The notes below the pieces were generated by a model. The model made no database searches. It was not told the origin of the DNA and worked only from the letters and a program-made list of their open reading frames with translations. The translations under genes were made by a program, and so were the position numbers. DNA of 64,000 bases from sequence record OZ346158.1, one strand, 5' to 3'. This document shows, piece after piece, positions 16,740-28,591 of this stretch; positions within the stretch are counted from its first letter, which is position 1; every line of letters begins with the position of its first letter. The stretch is from a phage.

Positions 16740-17200
16740 ATTTCTAAAATGGATTTCCTCCTTTTGATATTTTACCTACCAGGATATTTTAAAATCCTTA
16801 GAAAATCAGAAAATGGATCGAAAACTAAAATGGATTTTTCAGAGCAGGCACGACGAGATGAACCACTCATCCTATCGTCTGCACCATATTCCAGACCACC
16901 ATTACAGATTTCCCGCACATGCTCACATCCTTCTACTAGAACTTCCCCCACTTACCCTTGACCTTTTATAGTAATAATCCAACCACTACCTTGAAGTTGT
17001 GGCGCAGCTTTCCAAGTACTCGATCTGTTTTTCGTTTCAAAGATTTAATTTTCTGAAAATTTTTCTCGATAAATTTCTCAGTACTCGATCTGTTTTTCGT
17101 TTTCTGAATCGGATTTTCTGGAAATCGTTCCGGCTCTCGACCTGAAATTTTTGGGGACGAAATCGATTTTTCGTTTTCAGAAATGGATTTTTAAAATTTC
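16740..17200. repeat. AT-rich iteron-like direct-repeat region (AAATGGAT and (T)CTCGATCTGTTTTTCGTTT families)
   Basis: AAAATGGAT at about 16747, 16811, 16827, 17192; CAGTACTCGATCTGTTTTTCGTTT exact at 17014 and 17079 with degenerate copies through 17180; no ORF. Confidence 0.6.
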
Positions 17201-17295
17201 TATATGGGAATATTTTAGTGGATACTATTTTATAGGAAATTGTTACGGAGGGTAATTAGCGTGCTAATTAAATTTATTAAATGCGAGGAGTTCTC

Positions 17296-17530
17296 ATTTA
17301 GAATTTTGAATGATAATCATTCTCGTTTGCAGAATAACGGGCAGGCCCGGTGATTGTCTCCCGGCCCCTACTGCCCCGGCTTGTTATTATAGTAACACAC
17401 AGGACAAAGAAAGCAAGAAGTTTTTGCATAAATTTTTAGACGATAATGATAATCGTTCTCATTTCATGCAGCGCCCATCCCCGGTGGTTGTCTCCCCCGT
17501 CACCGGTGCCTGCCGTCCTTTCAATAGGTA
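17296..17530. repeat. duplicated structured GC-rich element (core CCGGTGATTGTCTCCC)
   Basis: Two direct copies (about 17296-17380 and 17440-17520) each with GATAATC..TTCTC..TTT..TGCAG leader and CCGGTG(A/G)TTGTCTCCC core; inverted third copy near 26461. Confidence 0.55.
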
Positions 17531-17706
17531 TATTTTGCCACCTGGCGGGGCCGCTGTCAACACTTTTCAAAAAAAAAATTCTAACCTGATGCGCTGACCG
17601 CTGCAACCTGGCAGGGCCTAACTGACCAGGTAGGAGAGAATGAAGGCTTGCAAACCTGGTGGGCCTATGCTATAGGATAGGTAACAATTGAAGAGGAGGT
17701 ACAAAA

Positions 17707-17883
17707 ATGGAAGGTAATATGATCCCCCTGGAAAATGTAGCTATTAATGACGCTGAGGCTATCGCCCTGGTTGAAAAGGCTATGGCGGGAGCGTTGGAAC
17801 ATAAAGAAGAGTACGAAAAAATGGTGGTTAACCTGGCAGGGGCGGCGGCTGGAGAATTCTACCCAAAAAATAATTTTAACTAA
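17707..17883 (+). CDS. hypothetical small protein (58 aa)
   Basis: ATG after gaagaggagg RBS; below ORF-track cutoff; TTGCAA-17-TATAGG promoter-like upstream. Confidence 0.45.
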   Translation: MEGNMIPLENVAINDAEAIALVEKAMAGALEHKEEYEKMVVNLAGAAAGEFYPKNNFN

Positions 17884-18628: not shown

Positions 18629-18711
18629 AAATCATTGACACGCTGCAAAATTTAAGTAAACTAGACACAAAAGGCGGGAATGTTTCCCGCCAGCACAAAG
18701 GAAAAAAGATC

Positions 18712-19107
18712 ATGAATAAGAACGTACGCCGCATCATGAACGAACTGGCAAACGATGAAAAAATTATTGACATGCATTTAGTCAACATTTGCCGCCGTTG
18801 TGTAACATATAACAACCGCGCCGCAAAAGCGCGTGAGATGAACGCAAAAGGCACCTTAAAGCCCTTTCAGGTGGTTGTAAAATCTATAACCAGTGCAGCA
18901 GGCCAGGCGCATGACCACAACAACGGGAGCACTAATATTGATCCGTCTTACGTAATGAAACGGATCCGGACTTGCAAGAATAAAGAGCAGGTGTATAATG
19001 TCATAGACTGGTTGGATTCTATGGGCGATGTGGTTTACAATAGGTTTTCTGCAGCTATCGAGATCCAGCTTGACAGGTTGGACGGTAAAGTACTGAAAAC
19101 TTACTAA
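18712..19107 (+). CDS. hypothetical protein
   Basis: ORF track 18613..19107; ATG 18712 after aaaggaaaaaag; upstream TTGACA at about 18635. Confidence 0.5.
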   Translation: MNKNVRRIMNELANDEKIIDMHLVNICRRCVTYNNRAAKAREMNAKGTLKPFQVVVKSITSAAGQAHDHNNGSTNIDPSYVMKRIRTCKNKEQVYNVIDWLDSMGDVVYNRFSAAIEIQLDRLDGKVLKTY

Positions 19108-19155
19108 GATTATTTTTAGATGGCCTTGACTTCAGGGCCATCAATAAAGTAAACT
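19107..19155 (+). repeat. 48-bp intergenic cassette copy 1 (hairpin GATGGCC-TTGACTTCAG-GGCCATC + AATAAAGTAAA)
   Basis: Near-identical sequence at 19737-19788 and 23478-23527, each directly after a stop codon. Confidence 0.7.
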
Positions 19156-19387: not shown

Positions 19388-19738
19388 ATGAATACTTCCA
19401 TCACTATGACCGCCGAAGAAAAAGCCCTGCAGATCGCCGCTCTGAAAAAACAGATTGCAGAACTTGAAGACAAGATCGACAATTTTGAAATCGACGAAGA
19501 CAAGTACGACGATAAATATGATGAATGGTTAGACGAGATCTACGGCGAAATTATGATCGGAAACATTTCTTTTCTTCCGTCGCGTATCCTCAAGGAGCTA
19601 GATCCTATCGCTTACCGCTGCGGATTTAGCGACTACATCGACAGCCTGGATATTGAGGACGATGAAGAATACCAGGAATTACAGACAGAGTTAGAAGAAG
19701 CAAAAGAAGAGCTTGCAGAACTGGAAGAAAACGAGTAA
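19388..19738 (+). CDS. hypothetical acidic coiled-coil protein
   Basis: 116 aa, highly acidic (E/D-rich), RBS aaaggagaaaac. Confidence 0.55.
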   Translation: MNTSITMTAEEKALQIAALKKQIAELEDKIDNFEIDEDKYDDKYDEWLDEIYGEIMIGNISFLPSRILKELDPIAYRCGFSDYIDSLDIEDDEEYQELQTELEEAKEELAELEENE

Positions 19739-19788
19739 GATTATTTTTAGATGGCCTTGACTTCAGGGCCATCAATAAAGTAAACTTT
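19737..19788 (+). repeat. 48-bp intergenic cassette copy 2
   Basis: Identical hairpin plus AATAAAGTAAACT as copy 1. Confidence 0.7.
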
Positions 19789-19827: not shown

Positions 19828-20073
19828 ATGGCAGCACTAATCACCAAATATTATGCCCCTACCAACACCAAAAGCGCCCGTATCATGGTAAAAGGCTTCG
19901 GACGTAAAAAGGTGTACACCTGGGATTATGCCTTAGACACGGAAGACAACTACACCAACGCGATGACCGATTTTATTAATGATCTGAACACGCGGATCTT
20001 GACAAATTATAAAATTACCGATATTGCCTATATAGGGGAAGGCGGGATCTGTTTTGTCGGTATCGTCAAATAA
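19828..20073 (+). CDS. hypothetical protein
   Basis: 81 aa; RBS ATAGGAGTTAAAACCATGG identical to that of gene 24445. Confidence 0.55.
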   Translation: MAALITKYYAPTNTKSARIMVKGFGRKKVYTWDYALDTEDNYTNAMTDFINDLNTRILTNYKITDIAYIGEGGICFVGIVK

Positions 20074-20148
20074 GCTGTTTTTTCGGTGGTCCTGGTAGCA
20101 GGGCCATCTATAAAGATAGTTTATCAATACAATGAAAGGAGAAAGTAC

Positions 20149-23136: not shown

Positions 23137-23276
23137 TAACGGCCCCGATCCCTGGGGCCTAACTTTTCAAATTTTTTTCTCCCTGAGTGTTGCAATCCGA
23201 TCCAGAATATGGATAATAACAATCAACGGGGAGACACTCCCCACCGCATAGACAAAGTTCCAAAAGGAGAAACAAA

Positions 23277-23477
23277 ATGAGCAACAATATCCGCGTTATT
23301 AACTTCAAAAAAGAAGAAAAAATTGCCGTGCTGATTGACGGTCAAGAAATCTTTAAAGGTGATTATGAAGATCATCAAACGGCGATTAGTATCACTCGCG
23401 TGATTGGTTACCATAATTTTTACCCTCAAGGCGCTGAGGCAGCAGTAAAACGAATTAAAGAGATTGTAGGCCTGTAA
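23277..23477 (+). CDS. hypothetical protein
   Basis: 66 aa; RBS aaaggagaaac; preceded by GGGGAGACACTCCCC hairpin. Confidence 0.55.
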   Translation: MSNNIRVINFKKEEKIAVLIDGQEIFKGDYEDHQTAISITRVIGYHNFYPQGAEAAVKRIKEIVGL

Positions 23478-23527
23478 AATTTATTTTTAGATGGCCTTGA
23501 CTCCAGGGCCATCAATAAAGTAAATTT
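23478..23527 (+). repeat. 48-bp intergenic cassette copy 3
   Basis: GATGGCCTTGACTCCAGGGCCATCAATAAAGTAAAT, one mismatch relative to copies 1 and 2. Confidence 0.7.
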
Positions 23528-24236: not shown

Positions 24237-24271
24237 GGCCCCTGGCAGGGCCTGCAGCGATATAATCACAT

Positions 24272-26212: not shown

Positions 26213-26404
26213 ATGAATATCGAACAAGTTAGAAAGGTATTGGCGGTACTGCGTTATCATAATCATAGAAAGGTCATAGACGATCCTGATTATGTCGATT
26301 CAAGCCTGGAAGGGGATACACTACAAGCCATAAGTAACATGCAAGAATTGCTAAAGCGCATGACAGAGAAAAACCGACCGGACTACATAGGCGAAAAAAT
26401 ATAA
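26213..26404 (+). CDS. hypothetical protein
   Basis: 63-aa ORF. Confidence 0.45.
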   Translation: MNIEQVRKVLAVLRYHNHRKVIDDPDYVDSSLEGDTLQAISNMQELLKRMTEKNRPDYIGEKI

Positions 26405-26615
26405 TCCTTATAAACTACAAAACAGGGCTTGCAATGGTCCTGTTTTTTGTTATACTTGTTTCACGGCAGGCGCCTGGCGACGGGGGAGACAATCACCGGG
26501 TGTGCCTGCTATATAAAAACTATAAAAACCGTTGACATCTGCCAGGTGGTGGGGTAGCATTTATCTCGAAGGGGGCAAAAGCGCCCACACAACAACCGGA
26601 AGAGAGGAAAACGCC

Positions 26616-26888
26616 ATGTTAAGCTGGATTAACCAAGAAGTTGAATCACGTTTCAATGCTATTTGGGATCTCATCGAAAAAGAGGACGGAACATCAAGCC
26701 CTTATCTCAATAATCTTGAATTCCATTTCGTGGAAGCGATGAACGCAGAACATGATCACGAAGGTGGTGCGGATGAATTCGCTAAAGGATATGGCTTCAA
26801 CAATGCCAACGAAATGATCGAGGCGGTTGTACTCCAGGCTGAGGAAGATTATCAATTAAAAACGCTTGAATTCTGCCGCCGTAAGTAA
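26616..26888 (+). CDS. hypothetical protein
   Basis: ORF track 26532..26888; internal ATG after gaagagaggaaaac; upstream TTGACA at about 26532. Confidence 0.5.
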   Translation: MLSWINQEVESRFNAIWDLIEKEDGTSSPYLNNLEFHFVEAMNAEHDHEGGADEFAKGYGFNNANEMIEAVVLQAEEDYQLKTLEFCRRK

Positions 26889-27796: not shown

Positions 27797-27824
27797 AAGG
27801 GGCTTAAAGGCCCCTTTCTTTTTG
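27797..27824 (+). terminator. rho-independent terminator ending the + strand block
   Basis: AGGGGC-TTAAAG-GCCCCT followed by TTCTTTTTG. Confidence 0.7.
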
Positions 27825-28544
27825 TCTGCTCTTCTCCTACCATAAACGGCCCTACCTGGCAAGTGGAATAATTGACTAGCCATCAATCCCACATACTGTA
27901 CAAATATACATGGAAAATAACTATTGCATAATTTTTCATTGTGTGGTAGCAAGTCCATTTTTACCCGTTTTCTCTCCCAAAAGTGCACGTAATGCCGCTA
28001 TTGCACAAATTTTAACCTGATGCACATCTCCAATATCTTGTCAACAACTAAAAATCTTTATAAGTCATACACTTACACAGCATCGAAAGCGTGTTCTACG
28101 CGAAAAATCGAGTATAACTATAGCCGCCAGATCTCAGAATTCACGTACGCACGCCATTCTATAGCCTGCAAAGTATTTATTCCAACCACAGAATAACGGA
28201 ATAGTCAATACCTGCATAAAATAATTATTCGTGTAAACTGCATAACATAAATCAGCTCAGGTGTCAACATTTTTCGTAAACAGTCCGAAATTATCACGAT
28301 GAGTTATCATAAACAGAGAAATCTTTAGTCGTCTAATGTTTACTGTACATTACTATACTGACTGGAATCATTAGATGACTAATACAATAGAACAAATTAA
28401 TAATGTAATTATTTTACCTGTAACAATAAGGCAACTATGCAAACGAATGGCATGGCGCGACGGAGTCGCGACATAATATAAAAGCAGTAACCATCACCCC
28501 CGTGATAGTTTGTCTGCAAACTATTAATCAGATCATAGTTGCCT

Positions 28545-28584
28545 TGTATTTAGTTAATCATGACATAACAAGCAAGGCAACTAT
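28545..28584. repeat. 12-bp perfect inverted repeat ATAGTTGCCTTG / CAAGGCAACTAT with third copy at about 28429
   Basis: Read directly; hairpin or operator-like, at the 3' end of the - strand gene block. Confidence 0.6.
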
Positions 28585-28591
28585 AGATATA

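Follow-up and report, generated by a model that had tools for sequence, protein, structure and literature searches.

Binding sites of the iron regulator Fur (Fur boxes) in Escherichia coli, such as those of the fepA-fes, fepD-entS and fepB-entC regions or of the multi-box aerobactin operator of iucA, are 7-1-7 palindromes of the type TGAtAAT-n-ATTaTCA that occur in tandem arrays and lie over the -35 and -10 hexamers of promoters. Such a host regulator site can also be carried on phage DNA, as in the case of the stx1 promoter of temperate phages. Phage-carried Fur boxes are likewise found with sitABCD on lambdoid (temperate) coliphages (PMC6969025). In these cases the box controls a cargo gene of the prophage. 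The locus described here shares box type and tandem arrays with the E. coli sites, but its boxes lie in a core non-coding region of two lytic phage subfamilies, beside early promoters and iteron-like repeats, and at a predicted 50-110 nt downstream of the promoter start of a virulent phage. They adjoin copies 1 and 2 of a GC-rich element that is present three times in a stretch of 64,000 nucleotides of phage DNA (record OZ346158.1; the whole stretch is called the window, and positions are counted from its first nucleotide), copy 3 being inverted relative to the other two.

The window belongs to a virulent, rV5-like Vequintavirus. Around the element, its identity is 99% with Escherichia phage JeffSchatz and 93% with rV5, a Vequintavirus of about 137 kb. 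The pattern CCGGTG(A/G)TTGTCTCCC occurs exactly three times in the window (17347+, 17481+, 26484-), and the 16-mer CCGGTGRTTGTCTCCC has three matches without any mismatch, at 17347-17362 (+), 17481-17496 (+) and 26484-26499 (-), for which the chance expectation is by our arithmetic about 6e-5 per 2 x 64 kb. With a profile of the element, nhmmer returns the same three places of the window only. The alignment of copies 1 and 2 has 73 identical columns out of 85, and that of copy 2 with the reverse complement of copy 3 has 71 out of 91. The repeat is real and far beyond chance, and the two direct copies of an about 80-bp element that an initial annotation had read from the window are borne out by it, as is the inverted third copy at 26461-26505. 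Also the leader GATAATC-TTCTC-TTT-TGCAG is indeed found before copies 1 and 2 (it is not present at copy 3), and the arms GGCAGGC (26465-26471) and GCCTGC (26504-26509) are found around copy 3.

Across the homologues, AA-CAC plus one G are invariant and the consensus GAnAAnCACCG ... GC(C/U)(C/U)GC.AU is nearly so, with the invariant GAnAAnCACCG being the same in paralogous and orthologous copies. The 5' arm has been swapped wholesale between two types, AUAGCGGGGAGAAUUGACCCGG at first loci and GGCACCUGGnGACGGGGG at second loci (the latter type includes window copy 2), whereas the 3' half is kept. The GC-rich core is conserved in primary sequence, in the manner of a recognition site. It had been noted from the window alone that the "loop" is more conserved than the "stem", and this is correct, which is why the reading as a hairpin fails. 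Inverted repeats do exist, but in the window only copy 3 folds more stably than shuffled sequences: in a comparison of 26 homologues with dinucleotide shuffles, z was about -3 for copy 3 (-3.3), its orthologue L111 and four first-locus copies of Certrevirus, and between -1.6 and +0.7 for the remaining 20 (copy 1 -0.6, copy 2 -0.8, the second-locus copies of CR3 and GEC_vB_MG positive), with a mean of -0.95. RNAalifold found no shared fold on a MAFFT alignment, just three trivial pairs, and Rfam had no match in the window at the gathering threshold and nothing relevant at E <= 1 in five related loci. A selected pairing would make each 5' arm pair best with its own 3' arm, which is not the case (cognate -16.28 versus non-cognate -16.48 kcal/mol, permutation P = 0.63), and the covariance check that had been proposed for the element thus came out negative, without arm co-evolution. 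The folds do not single out a strand either, as the two-strand comparison of fold energies was split 13 to 13 over the 26 homologues, and in a count of G-U versus A-C pairs by eye, copy 3 and GE_vB_MG favoured the GGAGACAA strand and phiTE the opposite one. What is conserved is the primary sequence and not a hairpin structure.

The leader GATAATC..TTCTC of copies 1 and 2 is, as judged from its sequence, a Fur box. The boxes AATGATAATCATTCTCGT and GATAATGATAATCGTTCTCAT are 7-1-7 palindromes, and of the 19 positions of the classical consensus GATAATGATAATCATTATC, 17 are matched by box 2 and 15 by box 1 (the tests used this 19-bp consensus or the 7-1-7 consensus TGATAATnATTATCA). When a weight matrix that had been built from 28 distinct boxes of the phage loci only was run over a 40-kb stretch of E. 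coli MG1655 with the enterobactin cluster, nine of its ten best matches on both strands fell into the Fur-controlled fepA-fes, fepD-entS and fepB-entC intergenic regions, which together make up 729 bp of the 40 kb scanned. A second matrix, from which the window's own boxes had been omitted, scored seven window sites at 14 bits or more against 0.3 in shuffles, and four at 18 bits or more against none in shuffles. In comparison with the E. coli boxes, the phage consensus favours the symmetric form TGAGAAT-n-ATTCTCA. Fur box 1 is orthologous to the core-adjoining box of 19 relatives, and arrays of one to six boxes are kept in phages of Escherichia, Klebsiella, Salmonella, Cronobacter, Enterobacter, Pectobacterium and Aeromonas. 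In the window the boxes are present at the left locus only, whereas Certrevirus and Seunavirus have them at both loci, and at the second locus they are found downstream of the core in CR3, CR9, GEC_vB_MG and EspYZU08. Many extra "Fur boxes" in the related locus L104 were rejected, being ATGAGA-type starts of genes. Counted from the starts of the well-supported promoters, the boxes are found at roughly +50 to +110, and they overlap -35 and -10 hexamers only in the case of a weak, doubtful promoter of the + strand. By sequence the sites thus agree with the Fur-box family in every test, and it is their position relative to the supported promoters that is atypical. The proposal of the initial annotation that the element is a protein-binding site therefore holds in part only, in that a cross-validated matrix identifies the leader as a Fur box and the core is conserved as a primary sequence.

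A promoter of the type TTGnnn-N16-18-TAnnnT is found upstream of the element on the GGAGACAA strand in 24 of the 26 homologues, from at least seven genera, and the distance from the end of the -10 hexamer to the core is 24-30 nt in the homologues and 36 nt for window copy 2. All three promoters of the window (P1 to P3, Table 1) read the element in the GGAGACAAnCACCGG sense, and the orientation of the core relative to its promoter is constant at both loci, although the loci are mutually inverted. The aligned homologues share the TTG as well as the A and T of the -10 hexamer, with unrelated spacers in between, which is the pattern expected of a working promoter. The orthologues of P1 (TTGnnn-N16/17-TAnnnT) have an equal distance in the relatives, and a promoter of the P3 type precedes the second-locus element in anhysbys, KKP_3264, CR3, CR9, GEC_vB_MG and EspYZU08. 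For P1, with a predicted start near 17382, a simple promoter scorer preferred a TATAAT 3 nt beyond the -10 hexamer chosen here. As every copy lies 24-36 nt past a sigma-70 -10 hexamer, and always with the GGAGACAAnCACCGG strand, it is predicted to be the early-transcribed leader of that promoter, the core corresponding to about +20 to +50 of the transcript. Other early promoters of the window are followed by a short GC-rich hairpin from about +4, then a CA-rich tract and a ribosome-binding site, and some begin with GGGGAGA like the core, for example at 23190. Because these promoters have a GC-rich 5' segment, too, the design of promoter plus leader seems to be a local rule, and the element looks like an enlarged, gene-less relative of an ordinary early leader.

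Promoter, core, Fur boxes and iteron-like repeats form a module that is kept in at least seven genera of the Vequintavirinae and Stephanstirmvirinae. The segment from Fur box to core is in Blastn comparisons 70-88% identical in other genera and in the second subfamily, the relatives being phiTE, CR3, PcCB7V and F5M1E (Certrevirus), GAP31 and GE_vB_MG (Seunavirus), a Mydovirus and Av-05, as well as phAPEC8, anhysbys, ZCKP1 and SD2 of the Stephanstirmvirinae, and part of the segment is matched also in an Aeromonas Plateaulakevirus. Lack of conservation in related genomes had been named in the initial annotation as the outcome that would speak against the element, and conservation is very wide. 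Along the + strand of the window, the common order starts with iteron-like repeats of 65-100 bp, which are followed by one to six Fur boxes, then by the GC-rich element and last by the sigma-70 promoter of the opposite strand. A second locus lies inverted and 8-11 kb downstream of the first in anhysbys, ZCKP1, CR3, F5M1E and EspYZU08, its arrangement from promoter to core always being that of the first locus, and in Certrevirus and Seunavirus it continues beyond the core with Fur boxes and one iteron-like unit. The two loci face outward and bracket a block of small early genes. In the rV5-like phages, copies 2 and 1 form two tandem units at the left locus, and from the right locus the Fur boxes have been lost. 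In a scan of IMG/VR for CCGGTGNTTGTCTCC, most matches were chance matches inside a prophage coding sequence, true relatives being only L019, L058, L076, L082, L104 and L111. E. coli genomes contain no similar DNA, and among 185,579 species genomes of bacteria and archaea none matches the 20-base pattern of the core; the element is therefore not captured host DNA.

Table 1. Positions of the element, its promoters and Fur boxes, and neighbouring features in the window
Feature	Position	Strand	Details
Copy 1 of the GC-rich element	17338..17381	-	core GGAGACAATCACCGG at 17361-17347, - strand
Copy 2 of the GC-rich element	17468..17518	-	core GGAGACAACCACCGG at 17495-17481, - strand
Copy 3 of the GC-rich element	26464..26509	+	core GGAGACAATCACCGG at 26485-26499
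Promoter P1	17389..17416	-	-35 TTGCTT (17416-17411), 16-nt spacer ending TGt, -10 TACTAT (17394-17389); read from sequence
Promoter P2, TTGACA-N17-CAAAAT, TG before -10	17532..17560	-	scan, 10/12 matches
Promoter P3, TTGCAA-N16-TATACT, TG before -10	26429..26456	+	scan, 9/12; predicted start near 26463
Weak Fur-like box AATGCGAGGAGTTCTCAT	17280..17297		16.6 bits, matrix built without the window's boxes
Fur box 1, AATGATAATCATTCTCGT (leader of copy 1)	17309..17326		22.6 bits, same type of left-out matrix
Fur box 2, GATAATGATAATCGTTCTCAT	17442..17462		27.1 bits (site at 17445), matrix without the window's boxes
Possible weak promoter TTGAAT-N18-CAGAAT enclosing Fur box 1	17306..17335	+	8/12, below scan threshold; read from sequence
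Three AT-rich direct repeats of 65-74 bp, TCTCGATC + TTTTTCGTTTT	17006..17191		iteron-like; downstream of the leftward promoters
Terminator-like hairpin of the upstream gene, -35 of P3 in its loop	26419..26446	+	scan
Next promoter, TTGACA-N17-TAGCAT, for gene 26616-26888	26532..26560	+	scan
GC-rich spacer motif	17541-17558, 17606-17618, 17645-17655, 17832-17849, 24241-24258, 26543-26551		
Intergenic gap holding copies 1 and 2	16961-17707		about 700 bp
Intergenic gap holding copy 3	26404-26616		210 bp
ORF-poor stretch, no convincing open reading frame (ORF)	27816-28590		about 0.8 kb; junction of + strand early block and - strand genes

With promoters at a fixed distance and orientation to the core, Fur boxes identified beside it, a wide conservation, a two-locus geometry and no conserved fold, the best-placed explanation, which is put forward tentatively and with slightly less than even confidence, is that the element is a cis-acting, conserved and early-transcribed leader or operator of host sigma-70 promoters, with Fur acting downstream as an iron-dependent brake. 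The window holds three such predicted promoter-leader units, two in tandem that fire leftward at 17.3-17.6 kb and one that fires rightward at 26.4 kb. As orientation and distance are tied to the promoter, the core (about +20 to +50) would act in cis on the transcription from its own promoter, and it may do so either as leader RNA or as a site in the non-template DNA. As ancient paralogues and all genera share the invariant bases of the core, its reader would be a component conserved in the hosts, namely RNA polymerase or a factor associated with it, and not a phage protein that evolves fast. Iron-loaded Fur, bound 50-110 nt downstream, could form an iron-dependent roadblock that decides between a stop after the leader and continued transcription, which would reach the last early genes on the right and cross the iterons on the left; the predicted transcripts from P3, with their leader, continue into the promoter at 26532 and gene 26616-26888. 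Narrower versions of this proposal, for example antitermination or pausing, are given far less credit than the proposal as such. Several points weigh against it. Transcript starts, ends and strand are all predicted, and the leftward transcripts from P1 and P2 meet no gene, as all annotated genes are on the + strand. Classical Fur repression acts at the promoter, and a roadblock to elongation is our own extension of it. Copy 3 of the window has no Fur box, so that the link to Fur is not obligatory, and comparisons by eye with the sigma-70 pause element, ops, boxA, the DnaA box and sigma-54 promoters gave no factor for the core.

The comparisons of the core with known signals were made by eye against consensus sequences, and all candidates were rejected at key positions. 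This applies to sigma-54 promoters, the DnaA box, sites of IHF, ops/RfaH and IscR, boxA and Ter sites, as well as to complementarity to RyhB or to the 3' end of 16S rRNA. In the case of a sigma-70 pause element the -10-like GACAAT has a T that is not conserved, and in the case of a T7-type primase site GAP31 has no GTC.

A more far-reaching reading of the same module, which is rather unlikely, is that Fur gates both borders of the early region in rV5-like and phAPEC8-like phages, that the 30-nt core is a new, fold-independent and host-read leader element, and that early expression and replication are coupled to the supply of iron; arrays of iron-bound Fur would then determine if the outward-moving polymerases halt or continue, in one direction through an iteron-type origin. 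The layout of the two loci, for its part, recalls the leader elements nutL/nutR of lambda and putL/putR of HK022, which consist of boxA and boxB (nut) or of a pair of stem-loops (put). Here, too, two inverted copies follow shortly after outward-facing early promoters in a terminator-dense region, but the element has neither a conserved stem-loop pair nor boxA and boxB (the resemblance of its GCUAUUCU to boxA GCUCUUUA is weak, 5/8 by eye), no N-like protein has been identified, and unlike in the case of nut and put the leftward transcripts have no genes to express. The likeness in placement therefore makes nut and put an analogy, and as the defining RNA features are lacking, the element is not a member of this class.

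Among the other explanations, a DNA operator fares best, though it is unlikely. In this case a non-Fur protein of phage or host would bind the 30-bp core as a duplex just past the promoter and thereby repress or block it. Conservation of a primary sequence without a conserved fold would suit such a site, and the second CAGGTCCGGT that is found 31 bp from the core's own at the second locus of CR3 and GEC_vB_MG resembles direct-repeat subsites. The site is asymmetric, however, and its orientation and distance are locked to transcription, which is not needed for a simple operator. Moreover, paralogues within one genome differ more than orthologues do, and yet have the same invariant bases, and there is no candidate regulator gene nearby.

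Somewhat less likely still is an origin-associated promoter, the G-rich transcript of which would form an R-loop or primer or open the adjoining AT-rich iteron region. Transcription-dependent origins are known from T4 (oriE and oriF), T7 (the primary origin) and ColE1 (RNA II), and like in these cases a promoter would fire into an AT-rich iteron region with a G-rich transcript, the predicted leaders having 42-50% G. The repeats at 17006-17191 look like an origin or a multi-site protein-binding region, with direct repeats beside an AT-rich region as in iteron origins, and homologous repeats of 90-100 bp, GGTTCTCGATCG..AAATCGAGATCG..GAAAAAATTTTT, rich in GATC and with A/T tracts, are found at the equivalent place in the relatives, directly downstream of the leftward units in every genus. 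The Aeromonas phage has no core, yet the promoter is retained there together with Fur boxes, iterons and a leader rich in purines, and CR3 and GEC_vB_MG have a single iteron-like unit beyond the Fur boxes of their second locus. Against an origin speaks that the right-hand copy of the window has no iterons, and that second loci in general have few or none, unlike the known origins, in comparison with which an origin function is here only putative. The GC skew of the window gives no origin signal, as it drops at 17-21 kb from about 0.13 to 0.02-0.07 and keeps its sign, and no initiator gene was recognised near the repeats in Pfam and PHROGs searches of the neighbouring proteins. Formation of an R-loop would also leave the invariant ACAAnCACC unexplained, and to our knowledge Fur boxes are not known as components of origins.

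It is improbable that the core is the overlap of two face-to-face promoters. According to this explanation a Fur-repressed promoter of the + strand, TTGAAT-N18-CAGAAT, has its start at the foot of the element and converges on the promoter of the - strand, with a sense/antisense overlap comparable to the RNA pairs RNA-IN/OUT of IS10 and ant/sar of P22. The Fur box would lie exactly between both hexamers, which is the geometry of classical repression, and in the Vequintavirinae the conserved block is unbroken from the TTGAAT through the core. The hexamers, however, match in only 8 of 12 positions and the site is not in the scan list, the Stephanstirmvirinae have no TTG, and the C(A/T)GAAT of the second locus is conserved without a -35 hexamer or an adjoining box, and for the last two reasons the promoter itself is doubtful. 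Copies 2 and 3 of the window have no credible promoter in the + sense.

Even a little less probable is a free-standing small structured RNA or hairpin, including its variants, a transcript-stabilising 5' stem-loop and a trans-acting small RNA with a conserved seed. The stable folding of copy 3, L111 and the first-locus copies of Certrevirus is in line with this, as are the short GC hairpins at the 5' ends that are common at the early promoters of this phage, and conservation of sequence without a fold would suit a seed. Most copies, however, are not more stable than shuffles, and there is no shared fold, arm co-evolution or Rfam match. An intrinsic terminator (GC stem plus T run) is not found on or after any copy, the only one nearby, at 26419-26446, being upstream of copy 3, and therefore no discrete small RNA is predicted; the small structured RNA of the initial annotation is thus not supported. 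A complementary target in E. coli was not found at the sensitivity of BLAST. The 5'-terminal stem-loops of the ompA type stabilise mRNAs, and the GC-rich segment is likewise at the very 5' end of the predicted transcript, as at the other early promoters here, but a stabiliser requires a stem and not a sequence, whereas here the sequence is conserved and the stem is not. A separate candidate for a new non-coding RNA was encountered in other genera than Vequintavirus, where a conserved non-coding block of about 85 nt takes the place of window copy 2 and is not present in the window (CGCCACCCCACGGCGwAAAGGCGGGGCUAACrUACC..GGUyGGAAGGUGrAUCGCCGGUAG; for example L135 1640-1740 and L123 2650-2745, also L122, L125-L128, L130 and L132-L134). 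It is on the minus strand and has its own promoter, TTGCAA/TTGACG-N17-TATATT/CATAAT; RNAalifold gives 16 pairs, one of which is a compensatory AU/GC pair, with an invariant G-U in the minus-strand sense, and Rfam has no match.

That the element is part of a protein-coding gene is hardly credible, because ORF 17310-17597, which is open and annotated in several records as a hypothetical protein (bas55_0100, rV5 ORF198, FV3_00182) and spans copies 1 and 2, has its ATG inside Fur box 1, shows no codon-position bias (9, 8 and 7 substitutions over codon positions 1, 2 and 3 among five Vequintaviruses), does not keep its frame in other genera by our reading of the alignments, and has no annotation in phage nimi. 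A small conserved ORF that starts in the leader was also rejected, as its frame shifts between anhysbys and GE_vB_MG and its substitutions have no codon bias.

In an annotated relative, the genes from primase/helicase and DNA polymerase through about fifty small hypothetical genes are all on the + strand, and for the proteins next to the element no function or known family was obtained from Pfam and PHROGs. ARAGORN found no tRNA or tmRNA gene in the window and likewise nothing in the related loci. Searches of the literature found no account of the element or its region and none of Fur boxes in such phages, nor a transcriptome for any phage of the Vequintavirinae. The rV5 paper gives only ORF 198 for the region of the element, and no promoter, and shows a "non-coding" box in an area that matches the ORF-poor stretch of the window.

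The early promoters with starts at 18635, 19308, 21182, 21899, 23190, 25015 and 26532 share one design, with a -35 hexamer that is often in the loop of the preceding hairpin, the -10 hexamer, a GGGG..CCCC hairpin (about +4), the CA-rich tract, the ribosome-binding site and ATG. A family of 51-nt repeats in the window (19105-19155, 19736-19786, 20071-20121 and 23476-23526, two copies being identical) contains the promoter TTGACT-N18-TAAACT, the -35 hexamer of which is within the loop of the palindrome GATGGCC..GGCCATC, an arrangement that may serve a set of early genes in the manner of an operator. In or near spacers of early-region promoters there is also a GC-rich motif, CCTGGyrGGGCC or CCAGGTGG, which contains the Dcm/EcoRII site CCWGG (Table 1), and the motif is present in early promoters of CR3, phiTE and anhysbys as well.

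Some records of related phages call for caution. MG065635.1 and about 17 other records are labelled "Campylobacter phage" with the host C. jejuni and yet are 92-99% identical to rV5-like phages of E. coli, so that the host label is probably wrong. The record of phiWec189 (LC739538.1) begins at a position equivalent to 17464 of the window, exactly between Fur box 2 and copy 2, which is either a real terminus or an assembly break in the repeat. WPEC2 (PV691511.1) has with 159 kb about 10 kb more than its relatives, and its two loci are in a different relative position. For Klebsiella phage vB_Kpn_K23PH08C2 (L126; OY757067.1 4031-7113) the feature table is out of register, and the ten tRNAs that it lists are not found by ARAGORN or Rfam.

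By its sequence, the module joins two known kinds of element, host-regulator operators and promoter-proximal leaders, with Fur boxes that are retained in the control region of a lytic lineage. An array of high-quality Fur boxes is thus present in a core non-coding control region of strictly lytic phages, where it has been retained from phages of Escherichia to those of Aeromonas. The 30-nt core, which is conserved in its sequence and not in a fold and is locked to a promoter, is a tractable candidate for a new cis-acting transcription signal, and the "hypothetical protein" that is entered in many records over the region of the element is probably no gene. The relatives of rV5, phAPEC8, PVP-SE1, CR3 and phiTE are phages that have found use in biocontrol and therapy. 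Should Fur bind, their infections would be iron-sensing, and as iron is limiting in the gut and in infected tissue, the performance of these phages in therapy would then be affected. Replicating phage DNA might in addition titrate Fur and thereby derepress the iron uptake of the host.

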